A stretch of 25,284 nt of DNA from a virus (taxonomy: Duplodnaviria > Caudoviricetes), in the IMG/VR virus record IMGVR_UViG_3300032320_000045, positions 1 through 25,284 of that record, one strand, 5' to 3'. Below the pieces are notes generated by a model. It made no database searches, was not told the origin of the DNA, and saw nothing but the letters and a program-made list of their open reading frames with translations. This document shows, in pieces, positions 2,746 to 24,840 of the stretch (its first letter is position 1; the number at the start of each line of letters is the position of its first letter). A program made the translations under genes and the position numbers.

Positions 2746-3126
2746 TTACGCTTTATTAAAGTAAAGGTTGATTTCTCCACCTAGAGTAAATCCGTCCCAC
2801 GGAACTACTTGAGACCCTCCATTAGTGGTTTGTGACCAGCGATAGCCGTTTGCTCCGCCAATCAACGCAATGCTTTGGTCATTTTCTGGAAGCCAGCCAC
2901 GGTCTGAATAAACCCCAGAGTCTGGTCCAAAGTTTAAACCGCCTTCCATGTAATACACGTTGGGGGTAGACCAGAACTTCAATGCGTTGGCATTGTTAGG
3001 GTCTTCCGTTGTCCATGTATAAGATTGACTTGGCGCAATGGTTGTTAACTGTCCAGCATCGTTATTCACCACGTCAATGCTGTACGTGGTGTTATTTTGA
3101 ATTGTCACTTTTACAGACCAAGTCAT
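2746..3126 (-). CDS. Hypothetical beta-rich protein
   Basis: 126-aa ORF co-oriented and tightly packed with its neighbours; rich in Asn/Thr/Trp/Gly. Confidence 0.6.
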   Translation of the reverse strand: MTWSVKVTIQNNTTYSIDVVNNDAGQLTTIAPSQSYTWTTEDPNNANALKFWSTPNVYYMEGGLNFGPDSGVYSDRGWLPENDQSIALIGGANGYRWSQTTNGGSQVVPWDGFTLGGEINLYFNKA

Positions 3127-3133
3127 AACGCAC

Positions 3134-3268
3134 CTATTCAGTTGGTTGTTGTTCTTTTACTTCTTTTTGCAACGCATCAATTAATTGGAACACCTCTTGA
3201 TAAGGACGTGTTCCTAAGTAATTAATCAATGCATTTAAAAGACCAGCGGAGATTTGATGTTTATCCAT
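3134..3268 (-). CDS. Small helical protein (44 aa), possible fibre-associated chaperone
   Basis: The real start is probably ATG at 3266-3268, just after the stop of the fibre gene: MDKHQISAGLLNALINYLGTRPYQEVFQLIDALQKEVKEQQPTE. The track's longer version overlaps the fibre gene out of frame. Confidence 0.65.
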   Translation of the reverse strand: MDKHQISAGLLNALINYLGTRPYQEVFQLIDALQKEVKEQQPTE

Positions 3269-3270
3269 GA

Positions 3271-4284
3271 TTAACCAGTAAACGTTCCAGAAGATGTAAA
3301 TGTATGAATTGTGTAGCCGCCAGACGATGTAACAGTTCCGCCAGAACCTTTTTGTGAGCCAAGATAACGAAGAATTACAGTTCCAGAGCCACCATTTCCA
3401 CCGCCAGTAGCGCCTCCTCCAGAACCACAACCACCTCCACCACCGCCTGTGTTTGCAGTTGCATTTTGTCCAACATAACTATTTGCAGTGCCTCCACCTG
3501 CACCGCCTCCACCAGTGGCAGTACTTGCTGTGGTTGTATAACTACCACCACCTCCACCACCGCCACGAGTTGTTGCTGAACCATTAATTGATGAAGAAAC
3601 ACCAGAGCCGCCACTACCGCCCGGAGCAGTTGTACTTGTTCCGTTTCCACCTACACCACCTGCGCCACCGCCACCAGCGGCAGAATATCCACCTGTGCCT
3701 TTTGCTCCACCAGCATAGCCTTGGTTTGCTGTGCCTGAGCCGGGGTCTGTAGCAAGATAAGCACCACCGCCACCGCCAGAGCCACCAGATGCGCCACCAG
3801 TATTTCCTGCTGATGAGCCGCCACCGCCACCTACAGATGTAATGGAACCAAAAACAGAATTAGAGCCATTTGTTCCTGTTTGATTGCTTGATGTTGAACC
3901 AGCCGCACCACCAGCGCCAACAGTTACTGTATAAGCAGTAAGAGATGTAACCGTAATTGGTGATTCAGCAGAACCGCCACCGCCAGAAGATTCGCCAGAA
4001 ACAGAAGAGCGATAGCCTCCCGCACCGCCACCGCCACCGCCACCGTTGCTGTTGTTTGTATTGCTTGAACCACCGCCAGCGCCACCAGCAATTACAAGGT
4101 ATTCAACAGAATAACTTGCTACATCAGAAAATGAAACCCAAGAACCAGATGATGTGCTATACCACTCCATTTGGTTAAGAGTGGTGTTTAAACCAAACTG
4201 ACCATTAGATGGCGAGGCAGGGCGACCAGCAGTAGTCCATGATGATGGGGTAGTGCCGTCTGTGCCGCTAAATATTTGAGGCAT
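3271..4284 (-). CDS. Glycine-rich tail fibre/adhesin protein, paralogue 3
   Basis: TTAGRPASP module, YLVIAGGAGGG, many GGGGG runs, C-terminal GYTIHTFTSSGTF. Confidence 0.75.
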   Translation of the reverse strand: MPQIFSGTDGTTPSSWTTAGRPASPSNGQFGLNTTLNQMEWYSTSSGSWVSFSDVASYSVEYLVIAGGAGGGSSNTNNSNGGGGGGGAGGYRSSVSGESSGGGGSAESPITVTSLTAYTVTVGAGGAAGSTSSNQTGTNGSNSVFGSITSVGGGGGSSAGNTGGASGGSGGGGGAYLATDPGSGTANQGYAGGAKGTGGYSAAGGGGAGGVGGNGTSTTAPGGSGGSGVSSSINGSATTRGGGGGGGSYTTTASTATGGGGAGGGTANSYVGQNATANTGGGGGGCGSGGGATGGGNGGSGTVILRYLGSQKGSGGTVTSSGGYTIHTFTSSGTFTG

Positions 4285-4297
4285 GGCTATTCCTTAA

Positions 4298-4651
4298 TTA
4301 AACTTGTTCAGTTACAACCCAAGAAGTTGTAGCCTCGTCCCATGCATAAGGACCGCCAGTAGTAGGCATTGCTACAGGGGCATCCCATAGGCAAGTGGAA
4401 TCATTTAGAGTCCAAGATGCGAATGGTTTTGGAGGAATAAATGCATCACGGGTACGGTCATAAGTAAAACCAATACCAGCGTAGTTCTTACGCAATGGAG
4501 TTCCACCATTAGCATGAACGCCACCATGAGTGTTATATGAAGTCTGAATCCACTCACCGGGGCTTGAATCCACGAATGTTGTGAAGAATTCTTGTTCGGC
4601 AACGATAACTTGCGTTACTTTACCGTCCACTACTTTTGCAAAATGTGCCAT
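4298..4651 (-). CDS. Fibre-associated protein (tail fibre assembly-like)
   Basis: MAHFAKV...WIQTSYN...RKNYAGIG.TYD...AFIPPKP..SW.L with a Trp-rich C-terminus; lies between Gly-rich fibre genes. Confidence 0.55.
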   Translation of the reverse strand: MAHFAKVVDGKVTQVIVAEQEFFTTFVDSSPGEWIQTSYNTHGGVHANGGTPLRKNYAGIGFTYDRTRDAFIPPKPFASWTLNDSTCLWDAPVAMPTTGGPYAWDEATTSWVVTEQV

Positions 4652-4675
4652 TTGATTGCTCCTTTAAAAGATTAA

Positions 4676-5689
4676 TTAGGCAGTGTATGTGCCAGAAGTT
4701 GTAAATGTATGGTAGGTGTAGCCGCCAGTAAACGTGACAGTTCCGCCAGTTCCACGTTGCGAACCAGCATAACGAACAATCACAATACCAGAGCCGCCAG
4801 CGCCGCCACTAGAGGCGCTACCGTTTGCTGACCCACCTCCACCTCCAGTGTTTGCAGTTCCTGCTGTGGCATTACTTGTAGTGTTGCCGTTGCCGCCACC
4901 ACCTGTGCCACCAGACCCCGGTCCGCTGTTTGCACCACCACCGCCACCGCCAGCATAGTAAGTGCCAAGTGACTGCCAATTGAGACCAGCCGCTCCGTTT
5001 ACATTTGTTGCGGCTCCACTTGCTCCGCCACCGCCACCGCCTTGATAGTTTGGCGCATCATTACCTGACGCTCCTGCGTAACCTTGACCAGAAGTGCCTG
5101 AACCCGGATTTGCATATGAATTGCTATCAGCACCGCCTCCACCGCCAGAACCTCCAGAACCTCCAGCACGATAACTACGAGCGCCGCCATATCCGCCACC
5201 CGTTGCTGTTGCAACGGAACTAATTGAACTATCAGAGCCGTTTGTATTGCTGTTTCCACTACTGGTACTACCACCAGCACCAACAGTTACGGTGTAACTT
5301 TGAGCAGAATTTAATGTTGCATTGTTTGACAAATAACCGCCAGCGCCACCGCCACCGCCGTTTGATGCAGTACCACCACCACCACCAGCAACTATAAGAT
5401 AGTCAACCGTATATGTTGCAGATGAACTAAATGGAAGCCATGCAGATGCAGTGCTGCTATACCACTCAGGATAACCAAGAGTTGAGTTGTAACGAGTTTG
5501 ACCCGAAGCAGGGCTGGATGGGCGTTGAGCAGTTGTTCCTGTAGGCAAAGTCATAGCGCCAGTAACGTTAGCCATAGAGACTAAACCGCTAGTTGCTTGA
5601 AGTTCTAACGTACCGCTAGTATCCGCAGTGGACTTTATCCCTGCGCTTCCTGAAACTACTCCGTCATCCGCTTTAATTATTGATGTCAT
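4676..5689 (-). CDS. Glycine-rich tail fibre/adhesin protein, paralogue 2
   Basis: GTTAQRPSSP module, YLIVAGGGGG, C-terminal GYTYHTFTTSGTYTA. Confidence 0.75.
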   Translation of the reverse strand: MTSIIKADDGVVSGSAGIKSTADTSGTLELQATSGLVSMANVTGAMTLPTGTTAQRPSSPASGQTRYNSTLGYPEWYSSTASAWLPFSSSATYTVDYLIVAGGGGGTASNGGGGGAGGYLSNNATLNSAQSYTVTVGAGGSTSSGNSNTNGSDSSISSVATATGGGYGGARSYRAGGSGGSGGGGGADSNSYANPGSGTSGQGYAGASGNDAPNYQGGGGGGASGAATNVNGAAGLNWQSLGTYYAGGGGGGANSGPGSGGTGGGGNGNTTSNATAGTANTGGGGGSANGSASSGGAGGSGIVIVRYAGSQRGTGGTVTFTGGYTYHTFTTSGTYTA

Positions 5690-5699
5690 TGTCTATTCC

Positions 5700-6737
5700 T
5701 TAAGCAGTGTATGTGCCAGAAGATGTAAAGGTGTGAATGGTGTAACCACCAGATGATGTTACTGTTCCGCCAGTTCCTCTTTGTGAGCCAGCGTAGCGAA
5801 TAATCACAATTCCAGAACCACCGTTACCAGATGGTCCACTTCCACTTGACCAAAATCCACCACCCCCACCGCCAGTATTAGCAGTGCCATTTCCACCTGG
5901 ACCGGGAAACACACCGTTGCCACCACCACCATTGCCACCGGGCTGTGGACCGCCAGAAACTGGAGCGCCACCACCGCCACCTGCACGGAAAGTGGCTGTT
6001 CCATTAATTGAAGATGAAACGCCTACACCGCCATTTGCTGTGCCTGAATATCCATTTCCTCCTGCACCTCCTGCACCGCCACCACCACCAGCGGCATAAC
6101 CGCCAGCGTAGCCTTGCCCAGCAGTACCAACTCCTGTGTTGCTACCCGCACCGCTTGCCGCTCCACCACCAGAGCCACCAGATGCACCATTTTGTGTGCC
6201 AGCACTATAAAATCCACCACCGCCACCGCCAAGCGATGTAATAGAGGCAAAAACAGAATTTGAACCAGAAAGAGGTGGGCTTTGAGATGTACTTGTTGTA
6301 CCTGTTGCGCCAGCGCCAATAGTGACTGTATAAGCAGTGCCGGGAGTTACTGTTAAAACAGCCTCTGCGGATGCCCCACCACCTGAAGATTCTCCAACAA
6401 CAGAAGAGCGATAGCCACCAGCACCGCCACCAGCCTCATATCCACCCGCTCCACCACCAGCAATAACCAGCGACTCAACGGAATATATAAAACTACTAAT
6501 AGTATTCCATGCCCCGTTTGCATATATTTCTGTGGCGTTTGTTGTTGTGTTTACACGAAAATCACCAGTTGATGGAGACGCTGGACGTTGTGCGGTAGTT
6601 CCTGATGGAATTTGCAAAGCGCCAGTGGTATTAATTTGAACTCGTCCAGAATCAGGAGTAAGGACAAGATTACCTGTCGTATCCGCAGTATTTACTAGCG
6701 CTGTAGTTGTCGTGGTTCCTGCTCGTATAGTGCTCAT
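5700..6737 (-). CDS. Glycine-rich tail fibre/adhesin protein, paralogue 1
   Basis: GTTAQRPASP module, LVIAGGGAGG, C-terminal GYTIHTFTSSGTYTA. Confidence 0.75.
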   Translation of the reverse strand: MSTIRAGTTTTTALVNTADTTGNLVLTPDSGRVQINTTGALQIPSGTTAQRPASPSTGDFRVNTTTNATEIYANGAWNTISSFIYSVESLVIAGGGAGGYEAGGGAGGYRSSVVGESSGGGASAEAVLTVTPGTAYTVTIGAGATGTTSTSQSPPLSGSNSVFASITSLGGGGGGFYSAGTQNGASGGSGGGAASGAGSNTGVGTAGQGYAGGYAAGGGGGAGGAGGNGYSGTANGGVGVSSSINGTATFRAGGGGGAPVSGGPQPGGNGGGGNGVFPGPGGNGTANTGGGGGGFWSSGSGPSGNGGSGIVIIRYAGSQRGTGGTVTSSGGYTIHTFTSSGTYTA

Positions 6738-6746
6738 TCTTGCTCC

Positions 6747-7961
6747 TTAAATGACGACCCAAGTCTGACCAGACGACAATGTAATGGTTGTGCCATCTGC
6801 TATCGTGATTGGTCCTACTGAGAAAGCGTTAAATCCTGTTCCAATTGTATAGTTCGTATCGGCTGTTGTCCCGTTTACGATGAATCCATTTGCCGAAACC
6901 ATGACCTTTGACTTTAATTCACCTGATAATGGTGTGTAAAGTAGGTTCGCATTGCCTGTGTAAATAGTCTGAGCCGTGCCTGATGTTGCAGAAGCAAATA
7001 ATGGGTAGCGAACACTGGCAGTTGTTGTGTCATTGACTAGCGCTGCGCCACCAACTGATGCCCAAACCGTGCCGTTATAACCCTCAAACTCATTGGTTGT
7101 AGAGTTAAACCGCAACATAGCCGCAGTAGGACTTACTGGACGTTGAGCCGTAGTACCAGAACTAATAGTCAAAGCACCGTTAGACGAGAAGATTGAATTG
7201 CCCGGCACGGTAATGCTGGTGTTCCATACAGGAATACCGCCTGAAATCTGTAATACTGCATTGGTAGAACCAGCCGCAAGAAATGTTGTGGTACTTGGGG
7301 CAGATTGATACGGTAGTGAACCTGCTGCTCCACCTGATAAGTTAGTAACAACTAACGAACTTTGTGCAGCCCAAACAGGGGCGCTGCCGTTAGAAGTTAG
7401 AACATAACCGTTTAAACCAATACCAAGTTTAGAAAATGCTGTTCCTGATGCGTAATACATCATGTCGCCAGCAGTAAACGAGGCTAAACCTGTGCCGCCA
7501 CTGCTTGTTAAAAGAGGATTACTAAGGCTTAAAGTGCCAATAGTCATGGTTGGCTGGTACGTAGCAGCAGCAGTGACGTTTGTTCCGTCTACATAAACCG
7601 CACATTTAAAGCCGTTTAAAACGGTTATGCCTGTTCCTGCGGAAGTCTTTACCAAAATTGAATAACCACCCGTGGTGTTGTTCTCAATAACGTAGTTTTT
7701 AAGAATATTAGGAACAATTAAACTGCGAACGGCAGTGTTTGTCCCTGTGCAATTTAAGTAAACATTGCGAAAAGTCTGTGAAGTATTGAGCGCTACAGGG
7801 GTTAGAGTAACGTTTGCATCCGCAAAAGGAACGTTAGCCCTACCTACAATAGAGTCCTCAAACGCATACTGATAGGTAGTATTGGTCGTGTTTCCCCAGA
7901 CACCTGTCTGTTCGCCAGTGCCTATTAATTCAATATATAGATTGGATGAAAATGTTGACAT
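6747..7961 (-). CDS. Tail fibre protein (proximal/shaft)
   Basis: N-terminal IELIGTGEQTGVWG.TTN, a SSGGTG...GD..YASG shaft motif and a GTTAQRP module; Thr/Ser/Gly-rich. Confidence 0.7.
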   Translation of the reverse strand: MSTFSSNLYIELIGTGEQTGVWGNTTNTTYQYAFEDSIVGRANVPFADANVTLTPVALNTSQTFRNVYLNCTGTNTAVRSLIVPNILKNYVIENNTTGGYSILVKTSAGTGITVLNGFKCAVYVDGTNVTAAATYQPTMTIGTLSLSNPLLTSSGGTGLASFTAGDMMYYASGTAFSKLGIGLNGYVLTSNGSAPVWAAQSSLVVTNLSGGAAGSLPYQSAPSTTTFLAAGSTNAVLQISGGIPVWNTSITVPGNSIFSSNGALTISSGTTAQRPVSPTAAMLRFNSTTNEFEGYNGTVWASVGGAALVNDTTTASVRYPLFASATSGTAQTIYTGNANLLYTPLSGELKSKVMVSANGFIVNGTTADTNYTIGTGFNAFSVGPITIADGTTITLSSGQTWVVI

Positions 7962-7967
7962 CTTTCC

Positions 7968-8924
7968 CTAGCCCGTATTTATTTGAGTCCAATTCGGTGT
8001 TTGGGAATTATTAATACTACCCCAATTAGCAGTCTGTCCATTGTTAATGGAACCCCAAGAAGGGTTTTGACTATCGTCAATCTTAAACCAACCGGTAGCG
8101 TTTGCATAGGCTGTTAGCACCATTAATTCGCTAACTGCTCCAATGAATAGCGCCTGTCCAATTTCTGAGTCAGTCAATGCGAACGATTCATTCCTTACCA
8201 AAGGTAAGAAAGTGTTGCCCGTCTGAGTGTCTGCTAAACCAAATGATTCTTCTGTTGTTCCAAAGAACGTAAACGAGGCATCTTCAACAACGCTTAACGT
8301 GAAGTTTTCAGCCTGTGCTCCAACAAATGCAGCAAGAACGTTCTGTGCATCTGCTAATCCAAAGAATTCGCCCCTTGTTACTGGGTAATTAACGTTGCCA
8401 GTTTCACTATCAGACAGCGCAAAAGTCTCTAGTTGCTCCCCAACAAACACAACAGTGACTGTTTGTGAGTCGGTTAATGTCATTAATTCCGATACAGAAC
8501 CAGCAAACACAACCGTGACATTTTCACTGTCGGTTAGTGTAGTGCTTTCTGAAACAGAAACTGGATAAGTAGCATTACCAGTTTGACTATCCGTTAGGGT
8601 AAACGTCTCTGTATTGGTAACAAGGAAATTGACGTTTCCAGTTTGGGTGTCTGTTACTGCAAATGTTTCAGTAACCGCTATAACAAATGTGGCATTTCCT
8701 GTCTGTGAATCCGTCAGAGCAAAAGACTCAACCGTATTTCCAAGGAAAGTGAACGAGCCTACTTGTGTATCTGTTAGAGTAAATGACTCCGAAACTACGC
8801 CTGATAAAATGGCAGCAACGCTTTGTGCATCAGTTAACGCAAATGATTCACTAACAGAGTCAGCAAAAGCCGCCCCACCCAATGCTGAAAAAGGGCTTTG
8901 GGAAAAGGTGGTTATGCCAAACAT
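7968..8924 (-). CDS. Virion protein made of about 13 tandem 20-aa repeats
   Basis: Repeat unit like xESFALTDSQTGNATFxxxV visible in the translation; located among tail genes. Confidence 0.65.
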   Translation of the reverse strand: MFGITTFSQSPFSALGGAAFADSVSESFALTDAQSVAAILSGVVSESFTLTDTQVGSFTFLGNTVESFALTDSQTGNATFVIAVTETFAVTDTQTGNVNFLVTNTETFTLTDSQTGNATYPVSVSESTTLTDSENVTVVFAGSVSELMTLTDSQTVTVVFVGEQLETFALSDSETGNVNYPVTRGEFFGLADAQNVLAAFVGAQAENFTLSVVEDASFTFFGTTEESFGLADTQTGNTFLPLVRNESFALTDSEIGQALFIGAVSELMVLTAYANATGWFKIDDSQNPSWGSINNGQTANWGSINNSQTPNWTQINTG

Positions 8925-9422
8925 TTAAAAAACTATCCAGCGACTCCCTGACGGAACAGTTACAACAGAGCCATTCGCCTGAGTCACTGGTCCAATCGAC
9001 ATTGCAGAATAGCCAGTTGGGAAAGTGACGCTAGAACTGATTGTCAGGTTTTGTAAAAATAGACCGTTGCTTGCTCCAAACTGAGGCGCAAAAGCAGTAT
9101 TTGTTTGGTCTAAATTGACCGATTCTCCCGCTGGATAGGTAACAAAAACAGACTTTGTGCCAGCGCTAAAATTAACAAGGGAACCGCTATTACTAGAAGC
9201 AAGAACAGTGGTACGAGCAAGAGTTGTCCCTGAAGACGTATACGTGCCAACACCCACTTCCCACTCGGAAGTACCTTGTCCCGCAATACAGTAGTAAGTC
9301 GTGTTTCCATTACCAATTACCGCAAAAGACTGAAAACCAGTACTAGCACCCAAAAGGGTGACAGTACCAGTGCCAGTGGTAGTCGTAGTTTCCTGAACCC
9401 TATCGGCTAAGACTAACGGCAT
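8925..9422 (-). CDS. Tail/fibre-attachment structural protein
   Basis: MPLVLADRVQETTTTTGTGT...WEVGVGTY...LARTTVLASSN...FSAGTKSVFVTYPA. Its C-terminal module is shared with 6747..7961. Confidence 0.65.
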   Translation of the reverse strand: MPLVLADRVQETTTTTGTGTVTLLGASTGFQSFAVIGNGNTTYYCIAGQGTSEWEVGVGTYTSSGTTLARTTVLASSNSGSLVNFSAGTKSVFVTYPAGESVNLDQTNTAFAPQFGASNGLFLQNLTISSSVTFPTGYSAMSIGPVTQANGSVVTVPSGSRWIVF

Positions 9423-9435
9423 GTTAGTCCCCTAA

Positions 9436-10002
9436 TTAGGATGCAGTTGCTGAATAAGTAACGCTTAATGTATCGCCAGAGGTTACGGTCTTAGAACCAG
9501 CGGTAAAGTCGCCAGCGCTAAACAAAGTACCAGTAGTGCTATCTTTGGTGGCTGAACCGCCAACGTTGATAAAGCAACCAGCAACAGTACCAGAACCTGT
9601 GATTGAAAACGTTACAGCGGAACTGGTTGTTTTAACACCAGCAGAAGCAGCACTGAAAGATGGAGTAGGACGGTTGCCTGAGTAAGTAGGAGCGTTAGTA
9701 CCACCAACTTCCAACCATGATGCGTGGCTTGCCTGAGTATCGGCTGCAACCGCAGTACCAGTACCCTTTAAGCCCATCACAATTGCACCAGCAGCAGTGT
9801 TGCCTAGGTATGTATCAAGCACACCGTTTTTACCAACAGTAGTAACAACGTTATGAATGTCATCTTCCCATTTAATTTGACCATCAGCACCAAAGCACTG
9901 GACTACATAGTAGCCAGAAAGACTAACCGCTTCTTTATGCCCTGCACCACGAGTGACAGTTGCTTCGCAAGCATCCGCCATATTTACTTTTTCTGAAAAC
10001 AT
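9436..10002 (-). CDS. Virion structural protein (tail/collar)
   Basis: Beta-rich, Thr/Ser/Gly/Ala-rich; strong RBS (AAGGAG) upstream; tail-module context. Confidence 0.6.
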   Translation of the reverse strand: MFSEKVNMADACEATVTRGAGHKEAVSLSGYYVVQCFGADGQIKWEDDIHNVVTTVGKNGVLDTYLGNTAAGAIVMGLKGTGTAVAADTQASHASWLEVGGTNAPTYSGNRPTPSFSAASAGVKTTSSAVTFSITGSGTVAGCFINVGGSATKDSTTGTLFSAGDFTAGSKTVTSGDTLSVTYSATAS

Positions 10003-10017
10003 TAAAAATCTCCTTGT

Positions 10018-10428
10018 TTAAACACGGATTAAGGCACTATCAGCATTATTTGCTGGGAGCGTCACTACAAAATTTGGTCCTGCCGTTTTGTCTGAACCAA
10101 AGTTCAGTACCGCAATAGACTTATTGCTTCTGGTTACATTGTAAATGAGTGCTCCCCTGCAAGTAAAGGATGCTCCCGTCCACTGTATGTTGTTAAAACT
10201 AATAAACACGGTGTTTCCTGTGGTTTTAATAGTGACGTTTTGGCACTGTTTTCCACCAGCAACATACCCAGTTCCCACGACTTCACCCGTAGTTGTGTAT
10301 ACGGTTGTGTCGGCATCTAGATTGGCAGCCCCAGTATAGAGAGCCATATAAAGAGTATCAGTCGCCAAGTTTTGTCCTGCTTGGAGAATCTGCTGTTTAA
10401 ACGATGTGGTTATTGTCTGCTGAATCAT
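10018..10428 (-). CDS. Virion structural protein (tail)
   Basis: TSFKQ.IL...YMALYT...GY.AGG...RGALIYN...IAVLNFGSDKT pattern; tail-module context. Confidence 0.6.
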   Translation of the reverse strand: MIQQTITTSFKQQILQAGQNLATDTLYMALYTGAANLDADTTVYTTTGEVVGTGYVAGGKQCQNVTIKTTGNTVFISFNNIQWTGASFTCRGALIYNVTRSNKSIAVLNFGSDKTAGPNFVVTLPANNADSALIRV

Positions 10429-11081: not shown

Positions 11082-11091
11082 TCTTTAATCC

Positions 11092-11355: not shown

Positions 11356-11357
11356 GA

Positions 11358-11555
11358 TTAACGACCTCTTCCTGAAGATTTTTGATTCATAGCACGAGCC
11401 ATATTGCGACCAACTTCTTTCATTTTCATGGATGTAACGCCAGCAGATTTCTTGCCACCGTTTAAACCCATTACAGTTGGACCGCTATCACCGTAGTTAT
11501 AACCCTTGGTTTTGCCTTTTTTAGTAATTCCGTCTGCGCCTTTTTTGAATGACAT
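11358..11555 (-). CDS. Small basic Lys/Gly-rich protein
   Basis: 65 aa with ADGITKKGKTKG; AGGAG RBS upstream. Confidence 0.65.
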   Translation of the reverse strand: MSFKKGADGITKKGKTKGYNYGDSGPTVMGLNGGKKSAGVTSMKMKEVGRNMARAMNQKSSGRGR

Positions 11556-11565
11556 TTTCTGCTCC

Positions 11566-14083: not shown

Positions 14084-14326
14084 TTACCTTTTAATAAGTT
14101 GGTCAATCTTGCTTTCAAGTTTGTTAAAGCGAGCATCAATGTGCTCCATAACTTTGTCAATTTCTGCTTGAGTAACGTTATCACGTGCCACTTCCTCTCT
14201 TGTTTTATTTAACAAAATACTGATACGGGCTAATTCTGCAAATTTCTCATGCATGATGTAACCAATTACTGCCATAAAAATGGTCAACCCACCCGTCCAT
14301 ATTTCCATCATGCTTAACATTTCCAC
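14084..14326 (-). CDS. Small membrane protein (TM plus coiled coil)
   Basis: IWTGGLTIFMAVIGYIM followed by a heptad-like C-terminus (IDARFNKLESKIDQL). Confidence 0.6.
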   Translation of the reverse strand: MEMLSMMEIWTGGLTIFMAVIGYIMHEKFAELARISILLNKTREEVARDNVTQAEIDKVMEHIDARFNKLESKIDQLIKR

Positions 14327-14556
14327 GCTCTTAGAGATTTATTAATACGAGATTGCGGGTCTTTTGCTGTCTTCTCGCTCGTTAGTTTTTTCTTCATGCC
14401 TTCCATACGGGCGCAAAAAGACTTCTTCCTCTTACCGCCTTCTGGCTGGGGAGGCTTTAAATTCATACCTTCCTTTTTGGCGGAGGCACGACCCTTGGCG
14501 TTTAAACCACCTTTAGGATTTTTGCCTTCTTTGCGAGTCCAAGCGGGAGTTTTCAT
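14314..14556 (-). CDS. Small basic protein
   Basis: AWTRKEGKNPKGGLNAKGRAS...RKKSFCARM...SLRAWKC; overlaps both neighbours. Confidence 0.65.
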   Translation of the reverse strand: MKTPAWTRKEGKNPKGGLNAKGRASAKKEGMNLKPPQPEGGKRKKSFCARMEGMKKKLTSEKTAKDPQSRINKSLRAWKC

Positions 14557-15834: not shown

Positions 15835-15861
15835 GTTTAAACGGGGAGGAAAAACCTCCCC
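15835..15861 (-). terminator. GC-rich hairpin, possible weak intrinsic terminator
   Basis: Stem GGGGAGG/CCTCCCC (15843-15849 and 15855-15861) with a 5-nt loop, followed on the minus strand by GTTTAAACTTT. The U-tract is poor. Confidence 0.45.
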
Positions 15862-16421: not shown

Positions 16422-16450
16422 TTTATACACGCAATTTAAACGGCTTGCAA
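16422..16450 (-). promoter_or_regulatory. Sigma70-type promoter
   Basis: TTGCAA-N17-TATAAA on the minus strand, directly downstream of the capsid-gene terminator. Confidence 0.55.
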
Positions 16451-16492: not shown

Positions 16493-16511
16493 CCCTAGGT
16501 CAAAGGTGCAA

Positions 16512-17426: not shown

Positions 17427-17437
17427 TTAATTGCTCC

Positions 17438-18052: not shown

Positions 18053-18073
18053 TTAAGACTCCATTAAAAAAAG

Positions 18074-18523
18074 TTATGAACCTTTGCCAAAACTAGTCGT
18101 AGATTTCCTCTCTCGGAAGAGTGGCATCCTTGGGTCGCTTTGACTCATTAAATTATTGTCTACAGCCTCTGTCTGAGCGGCAGTTTGATTGGCGTAATAT
18201 GCATTACGTTGCTCAACCATCTCAGTAGGAGTTTTGCAAAGCAATAACCCACCGACCTCAATATTGTCCTTAAAACGACTATTAGGGTCGATTAGCAGTT
18301 GAAACTGCGGTTGTTCCTCAACTTTAACTGGCTCCCAACCTTCTCTCAGTTTTCCTGAAAGGTTGCGTGGGTCAGCCACATTCAAGTTTGAAACACGAAT
18401 CCATCTGTATGAATAACCTGCTTGCTTGTCTGGTTCAGGAAGCAATTCTGGCGGAGACCACTGCTTTGGGCGCTCTGTCATTACACGGTTTTCAATTTCA
18501 CGAGGTTTTCTGTTGGTTGTCAT
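18074..18523 (-). CDS. Conserved-looking head-module hypothetical protein
   Basis: GYSYRWIR, REGWEPV and GGLLLCKTP; lies between the scaffold and decoration genes. Confidence 0.6.
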   Translation of the reverse strand: MTTNRKPREIENRVMTERPKQWSPPELLPEPDKQAGYSYRWIRVSNLNVADPRNLSGKLREGWEPVKVEEQPQFQLLIDPNSRFKDNIEVGGLLLCKTPTEMVEQRNAYYANQTAAQTEAVDNNLMSQSDPRMPLFRERKSTTSFGKGS

Positions 18524-18524
18524 T

Positions 18525-19466
18525 TTAAGACTCCATTTTTAATACTGCTTGAGCATATTGCTCTGGGGTTAGTCCAAGTTTCTTAGAAATACTCAATTGC
18601 GACTGAGTAAGCCGTATTTTCTTGGAGGATGTGCTACGGGTAGCAGGAGCCACAACCGTGCTTGGTCTTGTAGAGCGTTCGCTCTTTTCTTCTGTGTCGG
18701 TCTCAAATTTCTCTGGGAACCGTTTACGCATTGTTTCATCAATACGTCTGTAATACTCTTGTGATGAAAGTGGGACACCTTCATCTTTTAGTTGCTCGTG
18801 TACAGCCAAAGCCATACCCGTCATTACTTTGTCTTCACCAAACCAACTATTACGCTGTTGCCATTGTAAGGCTGATTGGTCAGGACGAGGTGTTGCCACC
18901 TTTTGTTGCATTTGTACATCAACTTCATCGACTTGTAAAGGGGTGTGTTTGAAATTCTTTACTTTGTCGTTTTTTAATGAAACTTCAGTCAATGTCTGCT
19001 GGGCTTCCATCATCCTATCGGTGTCGCCAGACTCATATGCTTCTTTATAAGCACGTTTAGCCTGTTCCATTTCTAGGGAAACTGCCTTAGTAATAGAGGC
19101 AAGAACGCTTTTTTCGCTTTCGTTGATACCCGCTTTGAGGCGTTTATTCTCTTCTACTAGGCGCTGGGCAAGGGCAATAGCCTCTTGCTGCTCACGGAAA
19201 GCCTGTTCTTTCTCACGTCTTTCGTCATGAGCCAACTTCTTCATCTGCAACAGTTTGTTCTTAACTTTTGCAGAATAGTCAGTCAACTCATCTTCATAGA
19301 GTTCGTCCTTTACTTCTTGAGGAAGGGGGTTTACACCCCTGTCTTTCTCAGGAGTATCGTCTTCAATCTCAATCTCTACGTTGGAATCCTCGGTAGTTAC
19401 TTCAACTTTGGTCTCATTTTCCAGTTCGTCTGGAAATTGAAACTCTTTCTTTTCAAATTCAGCCAT
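18525..19466 (-). CDS. Capsid scaffolding protein
   Basis: Very acidic N-terminus, long coiled coil, short basic C-terminal helices (IRLTQSQLSISKKLGLTPEQYA); lies between portal and capsid genes. Confidence 0.7.
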   Translation of the reverse strand: MAEFEKKEFQFPDELENETKVEVTTEDSNVEIEIEDDTPEKDRGVNPLPQEVKDELYEDELTDYSAKVKNKLLQMKKLAHDERREKEQAFREQQEAIALAQRLVEENKRLKAGINESEKSVLASITKAVSLEMEQAKRAYKEAYESGDTDRMMEAQQTLTEVSLKNDKVKNFKHTPLQVDEVDVQMQQKVATPRPDQSALQWQQRNSWFGEDKVMTGMALAVHEQLKDEGVPLSSQEYYRRIDETMRKRFPEKFETDTEEKSERSTRPSTVVAPATRSTSSKKIRLTQSQLSISKKLGLTPEQYAQAVLKMES

Positions 19467-19477
19467 GTTTAAACTCC

Positions 19478-19891
19478 TTATTTGCGTTTAATTCCTCGTG
19501 GGTCGTCTACTGTGCCTTCAACCGAGTCGTCATTAATCATGCGGAAGTCCTTGCCATGAATGACAAGACGTGAGCCTGAGTTGGGACGGACTAGGATAAA
19601 GTCGCCTTCTTTACACCACGCTCCAGAGGGAAAGCGTGTTGGGTCTTTGTAGCAATCTGGACCGAGAGCCACAACAAAAAGGACGGTAGTGAGCATTTCT
19701 TCATACTGAAGAGTGGCATCTGCTTTAAGAATGCCGCTTTCGTACTCCGCCTCGATGTCTGGGATAGCACAAAGAATGTGATAACCAGAAGGCTTGGGGA
19801 GTTGTTTTGCCTTTTCTTCGGCAGGTTTACTGATTGAACCAATAATTATGGGGTTGTCTGGATTGGTCGCCAGTAAAATTTCACTCGTCAT
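19478..19891 (-). CDS. groES: GroES/Cpn10-like co-chaperonin
   Basis: PKPSGYHIL, mobile-loop ESGIL, VVALGP, KEGDFIL and FRMINDDSVEG match the Cpn10 pattern. Confidence 0.8.
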   Translation of the reverse strand: MTSEILLATNPDNPIIIGSISKPAEEKAKQLPKPSGYHILCAIPDIEAEYESGILKADATLQYEEMLTTVLFVVALGPDCYKDPTRFPSGAWCKEGDFILVRPNSGSRLVIHGKDFRMINDDSVEGTVDDPRGIKRK

Positions 19892-20081
19892 CAGATTCCT
19901 CTAAATGTTTTTGTAGGTCTAGGATGTTTAAACGGGCAGTAAGAAGACCTTTTATCTCACCGACCATTGCTTTGTATTCAGAGTAGTCTTTGGCAGAACC
20001 TGTGCCTAATGCTTCCTGAATTTGTGCCACTTTGTCATCTAGCCTTTCGACTAGAAGTTTCATTACTTTGTTATCAATCAT
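19881..20081 (-). CDS. Small helical hypothetical protein
   Basis: 66 aa with DYSEYKAMVGEIKGL; overlaps both the portal and groES genes. Confidence 0.65.
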   Translation of the reverse strand: MIDNKVMKLLVERLDDKVAQIQEALGTGSAKDYSEYKAMVGEIKGLLTARLNILDLQKHLEESDDE

Positions 20082-22519
20082 TTATTCCCTTTATTGAGTT
20101 GGGCATTTTTGACTGCTACGTCTACGCCAAGGCGCAGTTTTTCCATTGTTAAGTCCTCTTGGGACTTGATGGCATGCTTCTCAGCCTCTGCCTGTATCCG
20201 CATTGCATCGGTCTGGGCTTGAGTCTGAATTCGCTGGCGCTCTGTCTCAATCTGAGCAATCTTCGCCTGTGAATCTGCTGCGTCCTTCTGTTGCTTACGC
20301 TGCAAGTCTGCTTGCTTGATTTGCAATTCTTGCTGTTGTATTTGTACCAATGGGTCTTGAGCCTGTTCGGTAGCCTTCTGCTGCGCTGCATCACCTTTGT
20401 GGATTGCCAACAATTGCTGGCTGGCTTGGGCGACAAGACGTGACAACTGGACTTCGATAGCGGCTGGGAGTTCTTTGTCTGGCTCTGGTAGAGCAACGCC
20501 CATTTGTTTCTCGATTTGCGAACGGTACTGGAATCCCAAGTGTTCTGCCATGTGCGCTTGAAGAGCCGCCATGATTTGATTGGCTTGAGGATTTTGACCA
20601 ATAGTTTTTGTGACTACTGGGTCGGTCATAAATGCTTGGTGCGCTGCAATATGAGCATCGTGGTCTTGGTAGATGAAAGCCTTCATCGGTTTACCGTTGA
20701 CTGCGTTCATGTTCTCAGAGATTGGGTCACGTGGTGTCTGGTCGTCTTCCAGTTTGACCAGTTTGGACGCATTCTTAATACCCAATACTTCAAGCATCTG
20801 ACGATGCAAGTACGCTAGGTCATAGAGTTGGGGGGCAGTTTGAGCAAGTTGGATAACCGCTTGGTACTGAACCACCTTTTGCGATAACGTAGCAGCGTTC
20901 GGGTCTGACACGGGAATAACATCCACCATGTCGTAATCGGACTTCTTAGCCTGTCTATCACCTTCTTCGGGGTCATAACTGTAATCCTCTGGTGTGTAAT
21001 CAGCAATGATGCGCTTGAGTAAACGCAACTCTTGTTTCATCGAATAATGGATACGGGCTTGTACCGCAGACATTACTTTCAGAGTTCTTTCCAAGATAGC
21101 GAGTGTCGTGCCTACTGGAGAGTTGGCAGACATATCTGCAATCTGCATGTCGGCTGCACCCGCAAATCTGCGACCTTCGTCCACGATTTGGTTCAACAAA
21201 GACATCAATACCTGACTTGGCTCCTTGTACGGGAGAGTCATGATGTTGTCTTTAATTGTTCCAGACGGTACGTCAACGTCACGGAACTCGGCTGGCGCTA
21301 TCGGTGTATCGTCACCTTTGACTCGCAGACCCCTAGTTTTGAAACCACCGGGTAGGTTTGACAAAGTTCCCGCATCCACCAGTTGCCTGATAAGAGAAGT
21401 GCCAGACTTAGCAAAAGCACCGACAAGGTGAATAAGCCCGAAACAATAAAAACCAAAGCCCGGCACATATCCATAATGGACAAAGTGCTGCCGTTTTTGG
21501 TACGTATTGTCGTCAGGGTTCCAGTTCCTACGGATTGCCAGAATCTGGTTGCTACCTTTTTCAATCGTGACAACATACGGTAAAGCGATTCCTGTAGGGT
21601 TTCCATCTTTATCCTTATGCTCGTAGCCTTCCAAGTCAAGGTTTACGTGCATCTCCAACAACTTGTAACGGTCATCGGACGTGGCACGGAAGCCCATCTT
21701 CTCGGCAATCTTCTTTTCTACTTCGTCTAGGGTGTTGTTAGGCTCACCCAATTCAACGTCCATGTAGAAACCAGCCACTTGAAGTTTGCGAACTTCGTTT
21801 TCAGTCTTACGCATTACGTGAGTAATACGCTCTGACGTTTCAATGTTGGATGCTCCGTAAGGAACAACAACGTCTTCGGCTGGGATGAAGAGAGAGACTT
21901 GGCGCTCTAGGTTGGGGTCGTAATAGACTTTCTTGAAAGCATTTCCTGACAAGCCCAATCCCCAAAGCATACGCTCGGTCTCAGGACGGAACTCAGTCAT
22001 TACGTCTGTAATTTGGTAGTTCATGTCCGCTTGAACACGGACTGCTGCATCTTTCTTTTCTGCTGTTTCTTTGCCGATAATCTCGGTCTTTACTGGACCT
22101 GCCGCTGGCAGGATTTCCATAATAGTTTCTGCTTGGAACTTAACAAGCGCTTCAGATAGAAGGGGATGGTAAACACCACAGGCTCCGGGCCAAGGGTCGG
22201 TTCTATCTTCAATCTTCATGCCGAGTAGTTCTAGACCATCGACATAGGTTTGCATCCAATCCTTACGTGAAGACACGTCATCATCGTAGTCGGCAAGCAA
22301 GTCGCCAATAATTTCTTGAAGAGTGCCTTCATCAATAAATTCCGCTAGGTTGGCATCAAAGTCTTCCGCTGATTCTTTGTCTGGGACGATTTCAATCTCC
22401 ATCCCGTCAATACCAATCACAACCGATTCGGGGTTTTCAATTTCTATTTCAATGTCAGATGGTTCATCAGACAAGGCATCCAATCCTTGTGGCGCTTGAT
22501 ATAGACTTTTCTCAATCAT
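20078..22519 (-). CDS. Portal protein (P22-like, with C-terminal Gln-rich barrel)
   Basis: 813 aa directly after terL; GNAFKKVYYD, LVDAGTLSN and a long Gln-rich C-terminal coiled coil. Confidence 0.85.
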   Translation of the reverse strand: MIEKSLYQAPQGLDALSDEPSDIEIEIENPESVVIGIDGMEIEIVPDKESAEDFDANLAEFIDEGTLQEIIGDLLADYDDDVSSRKDWMQTYVDGLELLGMKIEDRTDPWPGACGVYHPLLSEALVKFQAETIMEILPAAGPVKTEIIGKETAEKKDAAVRVQADMNYQITDVMTEFRPETERMLWGLGLSGNAFKKVYYDPNLERQVSLFIPAEDVVVPYGASNIETSERITHVMRKTENEVRKLQVAGFYMDVELGEPNNTLDEVEKKIAEKMGFRATSDDRYKLLEMHVNLDLEGYEHKDKDGNPTGIALPYVVTIEKGSNQILAIRRNWNPDDNTYQKRQHFVHYGYVPGFGFYCFGLIHLVGAFAKSGTSLIRQLVDAGTLSNLPGGFKTRGLRVKGDDTPIAPAEFRDVDVPSGTIKDNIMTLPYKEPSQVLMSLLNQIVDEGRRFAGAADMQIADMSANSPVGTTLAILERTLKVMSAVQARIHYSMKQELRLLKRIIADYTPEDYSYDPEEGDRQAKKSDYDMVDVIPVSDPNAATLSQKVVQYQAVIQLAQTAPQLYDLAYLHRQMLEVLGIKNASKLVKLEDDQTPRDPISENMNAVNGKPMKAFIYQDHDAHIAAHQAFMTDPVVTKTIGQNPQANQIMAALQAHMAEHLGFQYRSQIEKQMGVALPEPDKELPAAIEVQLSRLVAQASQQLLAIHKGDAAQQKATEQAQDPLVQIQQQELQIKQADLQRKQQKDAADSQAKIAQIETERQRIQTQAQTDAMRIQAEAEKHAIKSQEDLTMEKLRLGVDVAVKNAQLNKGNK

Positions 22520-22527
22520 GGCTATCC

Positions 22528-24036
22528 TTAATAATACTCAACCCTGCGTTTAAACGTAGGAATTTCATCTGGTTCATCGGTTTGCAACTTAATAAATCCG
22601 CCTTTACGAAATCTCAGTAAAGCCTGACTCGTTGAATCGACTAAGTCATCGTGGTCTCCATTCGGGAAGGACGCACATTCTTCCATGACTTCTTCAGCCC
22701 ATCGAGTATTCGGACACCATACCAAACCAGATGCGAATAGGTCTGATATTGCGTTTACACGGGCTATCTTATCACTTCCTTTGCTCGGTGTATATTCAGA
22801 AATTGGGATTCCCATTCGTCTCATTTCATAAATGAGAGGAGCACCTGCCGCCTTTTTTTCCACAATACAGGTATCAGGGTTCCATTCCTTGTATTGCTCC
22901 ATCGCCCGTTCCTTTAATTCAGGGAACTCCATCCGTTCTTTGATGGCTTCGAGCAGAATAATATTGGTGGTGTACTCGCCTTTTTCGTTGGGATGCTGGA
23001 ATATTCCCCAAGTCGTACAGGCGGAGAAGTCGGCACGGTTGTTCTTTTCAAAGGCGGTATCCCACGACTGAATGATGTAATCACAGTAGGGAGGCTCGTC
23101 ATCCTCCCAGATTTTCCACTGCTCCCGCTTGATAATCGCCCCCTCTTCAGAGGTTGGATTCTGCTGGTATTGGGCTTCCCATTTGGAAACAGGGAGTTCA
23201 GCCTTGATTGTTTCCAGTTCTTTTTGAGACCAGAACTCTGACCATAAGGGTGTTCCACTAGGCATCAGGGCAGGGAATTGAATCACTTCCCACTCGTTGG
23301 TTCCGTCCCGTTTGTTGGACGTATCGATGATTTGACCCGTTAAGTCCCGCTTAGACCAGCGGGTCATCACGATAATAATGGCTCCGCCCGGCTGTAGACG
23401 CTGACGAGGACCAGAGTTGTACCATTCAAAGACTCGGTCATAGACCGCAGAAGTCCCTTGCATGGCTTCTTGTTCGGAGTGTGGGTCGTCAATGATGAGA
23501 ACGTCCGCACCTTTACCCGTTACGGCTCCCCCGACACCAATCGCAAAGTAATCTCCGCCCTTGTTGGTGTTCCAACGTCCTGCTGCCTTGGAGTCTGTGG
23601 ATAACTTGGTGGGGAAAACGGCTTGATATTCTGGGGTATTGACCAGATTTCTAACCTTACGACCAAATCCCACGGCTAATTCTGCGGTGTGGGCGGTCTG
23701 AATAATCTTTTTCTCAGGGAATTTACCTAGAAACCACGCTGGAAACAGATAGGATGCGAACTCAGACTTGGTGTGTCGTGGCGGCATGTTAATAATCAGC
23801 CGTTTTAGACTGCCGTTGGCTACCCGCTCAAACGCATCTGCCATATCCCGATGGTGTTTACCCGCAATAAAGGCTGACCACATCTCCTTTACGAACGGCA
23901 TAAAGTTGTTACGGCAGCGCTCTTTCTTATCTTCTGCGAACAGTTTGCGAATTTTATCTACGTCAGGATGTTCAGGGGGCAAAACATCCAGCAGTTCTCG
24001 ATACTGCCTGATTTCTTGTTCGGTTAGGAGTGGCAC
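22528..24036 (-). CDS. terL: Terminase large subunit
   Basis: Walker A-like INMPPRHTKS, Walker B LIIDDP, coupling motif VMTRW, nuclease SWDTA and HDDLVDS. Confidence 0.95.
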   Translation of the reverse strand: MPLLTEQEIRQYRELLDVLPPEHPDVDKIRKLFAEDKKERCRNNFMPFVKEMWSAFIAGKHHRDMADAFERVANGSLKRLIINMPPRHTKSEFASYLFPAWFLGKFPEKKIIQTAHTAELAVGFGRKVRNLVNTPEYQAVFPTKLSTDSKAAGRWNTNKGGDYFAIGVGGAVTGKGADVLIIDDPHSEQEAMQGTSAVYDRVFEWYNSGPRQRLQPGGAIIIVMTRWSKRDLTGQIIDTSNKRDGTNEWEVIQFPALMPSGTPLWSEFWSQKELETIKAELPVSKWEAQYQQNPTSEEGAIIKREQWKIWEDDEPPYCDYIIQSWDTAFEKNNRADFSACTTWGIFQHPNEKGEYTTNIILLEAIKERMEFPELKERAMEQYKEWNPDTCIVEKKAAGAPLIYEMRRMGIPISEYTPSKGSDKIARVNAISDLFASGLVWCPNTRWAEEVMEECASFPNGDHDDLVDSTSQALLRFRKGGFIKLQTDEPDEIPTFKRRVEYY

Positions 24037-24267
24037 TTAGAGATTAACGACTGTTTTGACCGTGCTGTCCATCAATTTCATCGAACGCACCATATGGGGT
24101 TTAATCTGCAAAAGACCTTTTTCCCGCAGGGTGTGGATATGTCTGTGGATATTTGACTTGCTACGCATGCCTAATCCTTGGGCAATCTCCGAATAAGAAG
24201 GGGCAAATCCCTTCATTTTGATGAATGCTTGAATGAAGTCATAAACCAGTTTTTGTTTTTCAGTCAT
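24037..24267 (-). CDS. LexA-type winged-helix DNA-binding protein lacking the peptidase domain
   Basis: MTEKQKLVYDFI...GFAPSYSEIAQGLGMRSKSNIHRHIHTLREKGLL matches the LexA N-terminal domain; only 76 aa. Confidence 0.8.
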   Translation of the reverse strand: MTEKQKLVYDFIQAFIKMKGFAPSYSEIAQGLGMRSKSNIHRHIHTLREKGLLQIKPHMVRSMKLMDSTVKTVVNL

Positions 24268-24487
24268 TTAGGTAATCCTCTCTCTTTTGTTGTTCAATGA
24301 TTTCCCGCTTGCGCCAGCCCGATATAGGCTTGCTTGCCATATCAGAGGCATCCTGCAACTGCCCTAAAACTCGGATAAACCTACTCCGTTCGTCCTGCGG
24401 CATTTCCTCTAGGAGTGCCAAAATTTTTTTTGCGTTCGTGTTCGCTATGCTCACATACATGCCTTCGGCATTTCTACTGAAGTTCAT
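24260..24487 (-). CDS. Hypothetical protein
   Basis: Overlaps both neighbours in the same orientation. Confidence 0.55.
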   Translation of the reverse strand: MNFSRNAEGMYVSIANTNAKKILALLEEMPQDERSRFIRVLGQLQDASDMASKPISGWRKREIIEQQKREDYLND

Positions 24488-24659
24488 CGTCCTCGTAACC
24501 CTCTAACTGGTGAACCATATCAATTGCAGAACACAGACAGGTAGGACAGAACGCAACGGGAATGATTCCAAAGTTACCCTGAACCCCGCCTTCCATCTCA
24601 AGGGAGAACTTGGTGCTACAAGTACTGCACTCTACTGCTGGCATTGATATATCGCTCAT
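24474..24659 (-). CDS. Small Zn-ribbon protein
   Basis: CSTC...CPTC; GAGGGGG upstream and ATGA overlap with the preceding ORF. Confidence 0.6.
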   Translation of the reverse strand: MSDISMPAVECSTCSTKFSLEMEGGVQGNFGIIPVAFCPTCLCSAIDMVHQLEGYEDDELQ

Positions 24660-24790
24660 TTCTCTACCCCCTCAGTAAACTTCTTTAACTGGTCGATGAT
24701 GACCCCCAACTTCTCACGCTCTGTACCACGCATTTCAGCCTGTATCGCCATGAGACTCAGGATGATGTTCTTCAACTTACTTTTTGCCAC
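24656..24790 (-). CDS. Small hypothetical protein (44 aa), absent from the ORF track
   Basis: GTG start after AAGGGGG: MAKSKLKNIILSLMAIQAEMRGTEREKLGVIIDQLKKFTEGVEK. Its stop overlaps the next ATG (ATGA). Confidence 0.6.
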   Translation of the reverse strand: MAKSKLKNIILSLMAIQAEMRGTEREKLGVIIDQLKKFTEGVEK

Positions 24791-24806
24791 ATTTCCCCCT
24801 TTATGA

Positions 24807-24840
24807 GAACGTTACCCACAGTATATACGAACGTTTAAAC
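24807..24840 (-). promoter_or_regulatory. Candidate promoter/operator for the terminase operon
   Basis: -10-like TATACT (24820-24825) flanked by two AACGTTC copies and a GTTTAAAC; no consensus -35. Confidence 0.35.

Follow-up and report, generated by a model that had tools for sequence, protein, structure and literature searches.

A dispersed palindromic octamer in HTVC023P-type freshwater phages and its candidate reader, a SprT-like zinc-ribbon protein

The IMG/VR record IMGVR_UViG_3300032320_000045 is a 25,284-base stretch of tailed-phage DNA, which was analyzed over its entire length and is referred to here as the window. Its minus strand codes the structural arm of the phage, i.e., a lexA-like helix-turn-helix gene, the terminase, portal, GroES and capsid genes, tail genes and an endolysin gene, all on that strand. 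The capsid protein is 65% identical to that of Pelagibacter phage HTVC023P and 85-94% identical to those of many uncultured viral contigs, and close variants of the window are found in freshwater metagenomes. The phage is a freshwater phage of the HTVC023P type, and the window holds its structural arm. The subject of this report is the palindromic octamer GTTTAAAC, of which the window contains 12 exact copies, and its link to a SprT-like zincin (family phrog_6361) that is encoded in an early operon of related phages.

The 12 copies were noticed in an original prediction, which put the zero-order expectation at about 0.5-0.6 copies. All 12 are exact, and Markov models of orders 0-5 give expectations of 0.53, 0.82, 0.86, 1.18, 2.0 and 3.0 copies in the window, the order-0 value agreeing with that estimate. 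In 100 dinucleotide shuffles the mean was 0.69 and the maximum 4. The estimate of about 30 TTTAAA hexamers, about 12 of them with G..C flanks, was likewise accurate (31 and 12 counted). Among the 256 palindromic octamers GTTTAAAC is the commonest in the window, the runner-up having three copies, and the only octamers of any kind that outrank it are glycine-codon words of the tail genes. The top-ranked non-palindromic octamers are supplied by three neighboring paralogous glycine-rich open reading frames (ORFs) of 337-345 residues at 3271-6737.

Eight of the copies are coding (six in the 37 listed ORFs and two in small ORFs), while four lie at junctions. The listed ORFs that carry a copy, all on the minus strand, are 2746-3126 (copy at 2932-2939, codons G-L-N), the glycine-rich tail ORF 3271-4284 (4186-4193, G-L-N), the tail ORF 6747-7961 (7410-7417, G-L-N), ORF 10018-10428 (10395-10402, S-F-K), the DUF6321 ORF 14314-14556 (14500-14507, G-L-N) and the gene of the terminase large subunit, terL (22548-22555, T-F-K, residue 495). 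The two small ORFs, also on the minus strand, are located in the 11356-11565 gap (11460-11467, G-L-N) and between the portal and groES genes (19926-19933, R-L-N). The four junction copies are located as follows: on the Val-stop of ORF 10018-10428, right before the next ribosome-binding site (10016-10023); in an intergenic region where a short hairpin is followed by the word and then by a ribosome-binding site (15835-15842); between the ribosome-binding site and the ATG of the minus-strand ORF 18525-19466 (19467-19474); and upstream of the lexA-like/terL operon, in a piece of non-coding DNA (24833-24840) that holds 2-5 copies in several relatives. In 74 related terL genes the site is present at residue 495 in eight and at residue 484 in 32.

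The claim that the coding copies fall in different frames holds for two frames, x-Leu-Asn (six copies) and x-Phe-Lys (two); the third frame is seen only as the Val-stop at 10016. Protein sequence does not explain the copies, as had been anticipated: 3000 synonymous-codon shuffles of the 37 listed ORFs gave 0.6 copies on average and at most 4, compared with six observed, i.e., the excess survives both Markov and codon-shuffled nulls. In the ORFs of the window the word is written at six of 12 synonymous opportunities. The test for evenness of spacing gave p=0.13. The 12 copies are a selected DNA word.

One-mismatch copies are also found. One of these, proposed earlier to lie in a promoter spacer, is real; it is the variant ATTTAAAC at 16434-16441 (plus strand), in a promoter-like spacer downstream of the capsid gene, and further ATTTAAAC copies are located at 1419 and 15780 on the other strand. 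The variant GTGTAAAC occurs at 6549-6556 (minus strand), 19329 and 22753, i.e., three copies vs 0.9 expected. Both variants are tolerated among relatives: when 79 loci were pooled, GTTTAAAC was enriched 46-fold, GTGTAAAC 5.6-fold, ATTTAAAC 4.8-fold and CTTTAAAC 2.3-fold, while the other single changes of GTTTAAAC were found at 0.6-1.6-fold. The flanks prefer a pyrimidine, which gives the consensus YGTTTAAACR, and in some relatives the main word is GTGTAAAC or ATTTAAAC. This graded tolerance supports the view that the word behaves like a protein-binding consensus. One relative (G042) contains 34 copies of ATTTAAAC and only two of GTTTAAAC, which it writes at 2 of 23 opportunities; this looks like avoidance of the palindrome or a shift in specificity. 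In a GTTTAAAC-free relative (L039) the word ACAATTGT occurs five times in 13 kb (log10 p -5.7).

Nine of 123 capsid rows, counting the window and loci no shorter than 4 kb, have at least three sites per 10 kb, and most have none. Inheritance by capsid clade was rejected: a quickly built tree requires eight changes of the label, and the number was as low in 87 of 500 shuffles. The word marks a phage subgroup, not a capsid clade. The subgroup, which has a T7-like primase-helicase, ERF and a lexA-like gene, is scattered across the capsid tree, and the structural genes of the phage group are combined with two or more kinds of replication/early arm (capsid loci L001-L135). A scan of 5 of the 64 parts of IMG/VR for two copies within 30 bases returned 124 loci; 17 of the densest 18 loci longer than 2 kb are from the phage group of the window. 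Of 80 loci fetched by the primase-helicase of the subgroup, 79 are word-dense, and six long or complete relatives contain 30-47 GTTTAAAC each, i.e., the word is genome-wide in relatives, as the prediction would have it. Thirteen motif-poor capsid relatives (two of them complete) have 0-2 copies each; the helicase, AAA ATPase and SprT-like genes are all missing from them.

Selection at synonymous sites, where a conservation test had been suggested, is seen when carriers and non-carriers are compared: six carriers use 153 of 230 synonymous chances, whereas six non-carriers use 5 of 113 (the count left out G042, G043 and G046, which have other dialects, and G044, which has a tail-only gene). Orthologous genes differ in their site positions. 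By a rough ORF call the coding share of the sites is ~65-85% in most genomes, Venkman being an exception (14 of 35), and the non-coding share is ~15-35% vs a background of 6-14%. In nine genomes with asymmetric dialects the orientation is 56 sense vs 66 antisense (p=0.42), and in five genomes the early/replication arm has 12.0 sites per 10 kb vs 3.1 in the structural arm.

At the genome end of enriched phages is an early operon, which encodes a SprT-like protein, a CbbQ/MoxR AAA+ ATPase and a vWA protein with an HExxH of its own. Of this operon only the SprT-like protein is encoded in a metagenome fragment (L561) that was retrieved by the word alone (10 copies in 2,013 bases). The phrog_6361 profile matches this protein with E 1e-42 and that of L298 with E 1e-34. 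The invariant residues of the family gather in a C-terminal zinc ribbon, Q-x-T-R...CxxC...R...W...PxC, while the HExxH is sometimes lost. Enrichment was scored on a six-word family; at p<0.001 it is found for 27 of 35 SprT clusters (60% identity) with a QxTR tail vs 0 of 6 without (p=7e-4, a statistic that ignores kinship between clusters). For the 196 distinct proteins, 173 of the 191 that were pattern-scored as tail-bearing sit in DNA enriched at the same threshold.

The same link is seen in 14 cultured phage and plasmid records that were picked by protein similarity. Caron has 17 GTGTAAAC and two GTTTAAAC, Reedo 28 GTGTAAAC, Bogota 39 GTGTAAAC and one GTTTAAAC, R5C 17 GTTTAAAC and Pan1 16 sites; relative to expectation, there are 34 sites vs 1.7 in Venkman, 6 vs 0.7 in HeidiAbel and 4 vs 0.1 in Persinger, and the plasmids pMGMAQ and pUT1 have 18 and 5 sites, respectively. 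The carriers are thus phages and plasmids, and their hosts are Actinobacteria and Alpha-, Beta- and Gammaproteobacteria. Four of the 14 records are unenriched, i.e., LK3, Dismas and Epa43, which have tails without QxTR and 0-1 sites, and a Ralstonia plasmid (QTRRH). In a single case with the arm KKDKCR (G370), neither GTTTAAAC nor GTGTAAAC is present, yet GTATAAAC occurs seven times vs 0.4 expected. Sites are few where only 46-49 residues of the zinc ribbon are kept: L390 has three in 17.5 kb and L391/G044 has six in 64 kb, with 3 of 24 synonymous chances used in G044. In L285 both the SprT-like gene and the word are absent. The free-standing zinc-ribbon-tail genes (L390:10990-11139 and L391:4662-4802, both on the minus strand) are found amid small early-region genes.

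These comparisons show that the word co-occurs with a full-length SprT-like gene across unrelated elements and indicate that it follows the QxTR tail, not the SprT gene as such. We consider it very likely that words of the GTTTAAAC type are the recognition sites of the SprT-like zinc-ribbon protein, in which the C-terminal KKQxTR ribbon would read GT(T/G)TAAAC.

Other readers encoded by these phages fit less well. The original prediction had named the LexA-like protein, a 76-residue winged-helix protein whose gene (24037-24267, minus strand) is coupled to terL and is a marker of the phage subgroup. The window has this gene, as do all 16 near-complete relatives that were searched, and copies of the word cluster upstream of it. 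However, it is also present in L285 (0 sites), L082, L090 and G044 (6 sites in 64 kb), the 14 cultured phages and plasmids, with many strongly enriched records among them, gave no match to it, and it is absent from the annotations of the enriched Caron and Reedo. Binding of the sites by this protein is therefore very improbable, and it was rejected as the reader. A priming site of the primase was rejected as well, the helicase being found in the motif-poor L285, L390 and L391 and having no match in cultured carriers. The AAA/vWA pair was dropped because many enriched elements lack it.

Near the contig end, between the small-terminase and lexA-like genes, is a palindrome (25189-25204) that is parS-like by the chromosomal ParB consensus. 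It occurs in 18 of 78 terminase-relative loci (L394-L471) and in none of the capsid loci L001-L135, and it could recruit or decoy host ParB.

The SprT-like gene is absent from the 25-kb window itself. It is present in the nearest terminase relatives, L463 (89%), L464 (87%) and L394/L395 (85%), and the lexA-like protein of another relative (G045) is 95% identical to that of the window. Run X1 contains 96% of the sampled words of the window. From this run, a 3,522-base contig (depth 33.1) matches window positions 22755-25284 with nine differences and extends 992 bases past the window, into the small-terminase gene, and two further contigs, of 290 bases (depth 35) and 5,712 bases (depth 33.0), match L463 at ~96% identity across its SprT, AAA and vWA genes. 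The phage of the window is thus likely to carry the SprT-like gene beyond position 25284, a link that is strong but indirect because the pieces are adjacent and not joined.

The structural model of the SprT-like protein has a predicted local distance difference test (pLDDT) score of 82.5, and its first ~130 residues resemble SPRTN and Wss1. The best fold matches are SPRTN 6mdw/6mdx (E 0.0097; for 6mdx Z 8.3, a root-mean-square deviation of 3.1 and 96 residues, a Z barely above the common range), and Wss1 (5xbn) matches with Z 7.5. The HExxH is intact in 182 of 196 distinct proteins. It is lost at 14 of 144 loci with AAA/vWA partners vs 0 of 52 without (p=0.023, uncorrected), and in 10 of these 14 loci the vWA-type gene shows an HExxH. 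The 52 loci without an AAA partner are counted within the DNA examined.

The CobT-like vWA partner is split into peptidase and vWA genes in one clade (L298:9267-10385, minus strand, and the downstream gene) and fused in another (L275:8435-10072, minus strand). Ahead of its AAA+ domain the MoxR ATPase carries an additional helical domain at the N-terminus, which by eye looks SAP/HeH-like (first 60 residues of the alignment), and a coiled-coil stretch. The SprT-like gene is gp1 of Venkman, early and at the genome end, and in LK3 it adjoins an annotated antirestriction gene; in L285 and L292 its slot is taken by a gene that we presume to be ArdC-like. Beside the early promoter region of the SprT-like gene, 2-4 perfect DnaA boxes are clustered, unrelated carriers included (G038 46349-46389, G043 1285-1377, G046 46292-46468, G041, G367 and the left end of Venkman). 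These clusters are possibly a host-DnaA origin or a decoy.

The reading that we favor, while giving it just short of an even chance, is that the copies are docking sites of a DNA-addressed, SPRTN-like protease that guards the DNA of the element itself. Given that the protein binds the word, a purpose in local proteolysis or remodeling is somewhat likelier than not. The C-terminal zinc ribbon would read the word and hold the protease domain along the element's own DNA, where the tethered protein would probably cut or strip proteins that attack or block this DNA. Possible targets are host defense motors, silencers and DNA-protein crosslinks on the incoming DNA; the host chromosome, having few sites, would be spared. 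Its partners in this phage group would be the MoxR AAA+ ATPase and the vWA-metallopeptidase, whose genes are co-transcribed with that of the SprT-like protein. A coverage or clearing role is favored over a promoter switch because the sites are mostly coding and unoriented and because in 6 of 18 genomes (none of the HTVC type) they are spaced more evenly than by chance. It is favored further because the tail alone does not keep the sites, because the early gene shares its slot with ArdC-like antirestriction genes, and because the gene occurs in phages without an integrase and in plasmids; the emphasis on proteolysis follows from the loss of the HExxH only beside the AAA/vWA-peptidase pair. A broader version, in which mobile elements of several phyla share a self-address code, is conceivable, though we would lean against it. 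In this version the word would tether a sequence-specific SPRTN-like protease, joined in this phage group by an AAA+ unfoldase and a second peptidase, so that host defense or silencing proteins are destroyed only where they sit on DNA of the element itself.

Several observations weigh against the guard reading. Even spacing is not seen in 12 of the 18 genomes, among them all of the HTVC type, and the contigs of run X1 do not form one piece. The zinc ribbon alone has no fold match at E<=0.001 (best Z 3.0, to generic rubredoxin-like ribbons), and in the Atlas it gave only leads under 0.9. Eight of the 35 intact-tail clusters are unenriched, the whole genomes G371, G372, G375 and G376 have only 2-5 sites each, and the six-word family was fixed after part of the data had been seen. 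Six records from the motif-pair scan are enriched 3- to 20-fold without a SprT-like gene (11 sites vs 1.6 in G025, 14 vs 3.1 in G030 and 6 vs 0.3 in G023; also G024, G027 and G028), and L292 has three copies in 7 kb and no such gene. In the six records the copies often form tight pairs or tandems, and these sites are perhaps operators of another protein. A 3,647-base metagenome fragment (L569) has 13 GTTTAAAC, about one every 300 bases, among small unknown early-type genes and no SprT-like gene; a tail-only profile has no match in this fragment or in the six records. Finally, Liebe, which has a truncated SprT-like gene, forms clear plaques, whereas Maureen forms turbid ones, which points to lysogeny control (bioRxiv 10.1101/2025.05.26.655371).

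This last observation belongs to the main rival of the guard reading, a stoperator-like repressor, which we consider unlikely, though it deserves serious weight. Here, the reader would be the same, but the SprT-like protein would be a repressor or immunity factor, the copies operators and stoperator-like roadblocks, and the protease domain would serve self-cleavage or induction. No repressor has been identified in Cluster AZ phages, and the clear Liebe is a twin of the turbid Maureen, although three other changes separate the two (same preprint). Also in line with a repressor are the four of 12 window copies at junctions or a promoter, the non-coding share of the sites that exceeds background, and the clustering of copies upstream of the lexA-like operon; the parS-like and DnaA-box clusters may be signs of an episomal life of the phage. 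On the other hand, the majority of sites are coding and the orientation is unbiased, unlike the polar, mostly intergenic stoperators (PMC9283540). A search for integrases (PF00589, PF07508) found none in any of the 13 near-complete HTVC-type carriers and none in Bogota, R5C, Pan1 and Venkman, plasmids also carry gene and word, and one specificity across phyla would be unlike diversifying immunity groups.

The same reader could also have a housekeeping role outside any conflict with the host. The sites would then serve to load the protein, together with the AAA+/vWA pair, so that the element's DNA is organized, replicated or packaged or so that proteins of the phage itself are cleared away. MoxR-vWA-peptidase pairs have been proposed as virion-assembly chaperones of jumbo phages (PMC7824862), and such a role would suit the coverage of whole genomes and the enrichment of nearly all helicase relatives (79 of 80). 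We hold it to be improbable: the sites are about four times denser in the early/replication arm than in the structural arm (12.0 vs 3.1), the SprT gene can be swapped for an ArdC-like gene or lost while helicase and structural genes stay, and 52 of 196 SprT loci have no AAA partner within the DNA examined.

The enriched records without a SprT-like gene are also compatible with another maker or reader of the word, i.e., a DNA-binding protein of the host, a HIP1-like drive by a methyltransferase and biased repair, or side effects of restriction avoidance, the link to SprT being one of hitch-hiking. The near-saturating use of synonymous chances resembles HIP1, and AGCT, CGCG and GATC are wholly missing from the window, which therefore appears to be under strong restriction pressure. 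However, the link spans phages and plasmids of Actinobacteria and Alpha-, Beta- and Gammaproteobacteria, it follows the QxTR tail and not the gene as such, and one-mismatch neighbors are tolerated in a graded fashion, not depleted. No methyltransferase is annotated in Caron or Reedo, where only the annotations were consulted and no systematic search was made. A signal of host chromosomes is not supported, as neither five metagenome-assembled genomes nor 301 Burkholderiales genomes (one order sampled) are enriched; in the latter, YGTTTAAACR does not exceed 38 per 2.0 Mb and is mostly rarer than a control word. Two of the 301 (G356 and G088) are flagged as unpublished and enter this tally alone. 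We thus regard this explanation as quite improbable. Of the dispersed, HIP1-like binding or modification signal put forward in the original prediction, what stands is a dispersed and selected word of the binding type (graded tolerance, genome-wide and synonymous use); a HIP1-like host signal is not supported by the chromosomes sampled. The Burkholderia methylation motif GTWWAC was rejected since it is not contained in GTTTAAAC. As for short palindromes in general, GGCC is found four times in the window, where 80 copies would be expected, and of the 64 palindromic hexamers 33 do not occur, an avoidance of restriction sites that is unusually deep compared with most relatives.

If the copies are indeed docking sites of a guard protease, self would be marked by gaining sites that recruit a protease, rather than by DNA modification or site avoidance, and a DNA-addressed protease could be a general means of counter-defense. 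A common unannotated phage family, phrog_6361, would gain a function and a target word; it occurs in an abundant freshwater phage group and in tractable cultured phages (Reedo, Caron, Bogota and, in E. coli, HeidiAbel). Two questions become testable, i.e., the role of bacterial and phage SprT-like proteins, and lysogeny control in cluster AZ without a known repressor. In addition, a 50-residue sequence-specific module that brings a protease to DNA would be a useful tool.

KorB of IncP plasmids is a ParB-family repressor with a 13-base operator and about a dozen dispersed sites, and the likeness is in dispersed sites for an element-encoded protein. ArdC is an early anti-defense protein that bears a zincin domain; the likeness here is in the gene, presumably ArdC-like, that fills the SprT slot in L285 and L292, while ArdC is not known to use a specific word. 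SPRTN (Spartan) and Wss1 share with the SprT-like protein the zincin fold, with Z values of 8.3 and 7.5 for 6mdx and 5xbn, the HExxH and, by the assignment proposed here, a DNA-binding part after the protease domain. These enzymes, whose proteolysis of DNA-protein crosslinks is activated by DNA, pair with the AAA+ ATPase p97/Cdc48 and read DNA structure, not sequence, and they are not known to have a genome-wide docking word. In contrast, the elements described here have a specific word that goes with the C-terminal tail of the protein, and the partners are a MoxR ATPase and a vWA-peptidase.

HIP1 (GCGATCGC) of cyanobacteria is similarly an over-represented palindromic octamer in coding sequence, quasi-periodic in some genomes (PMC4390886, PMC5861425, PMC13756078), and GTTTAAAC, too, is in strong excess, at synonymous positions as well. 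HIP1 belongs to chromosomes and is linked to two methyltransferases, whereas the present word marks mobile elements and is tied to a protease-like gene; it is unenriched in the sampled chromosomes, which represent one order, and it tolerates one-letter dialects.

The stoperators of Cluster A mycobacteriophages, which are bound by a repressor of the L5 gp71 type, are at least 20 short sites across a phage genome for one phage-encoded protein (PMC9283540). More than 20 dispersed sites are also found here, i.e., 30-47 GTTTAAAC in six relatives and 28 and 39 GTGTAAAC in Reedo and Bogota, respectively. Stoperators are asymmetric 13-mers oriented with transcription and located in promoters and short intergenic spaces, and their reader is a repressor with helix-turn-helix and Stoperator domains, which blocks transcription and confers immunity; here, the word is palindromic or near-palindromic, 8-10 bases long and unoriented, 8 of 12 window copies are coding, and the linked protein is a zincin with a zinc ribbon. 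Unlike stoperators, the word is also shared across phyla and plasmids, and many carriers have no integrase. In orientation, location and type of reader the feature thus differs from stoperators and does not fit that class.

The closest relatives of the candidate reader are the SprT-like proteases of Arthrobacter cluster AZ and Microbacterium EB/EH phages (phrog_6361), which belong to the same protein family. The main text of the cluster AZ preprint (bioRxiv 10.1101/2025.05.26.655371) contains neither TAAAC, GTTTA or "palindrom" nor a binding site, and the literature searched, which most subscription papers lay outside, gave no description of the word or of a binding site for the SprT-like protein. 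The pair of protein and site thus appears to be undescribed, even if the protein should be a repressor, and the genome-wide word is an addition to the knowledge of the phrog_6361 family.

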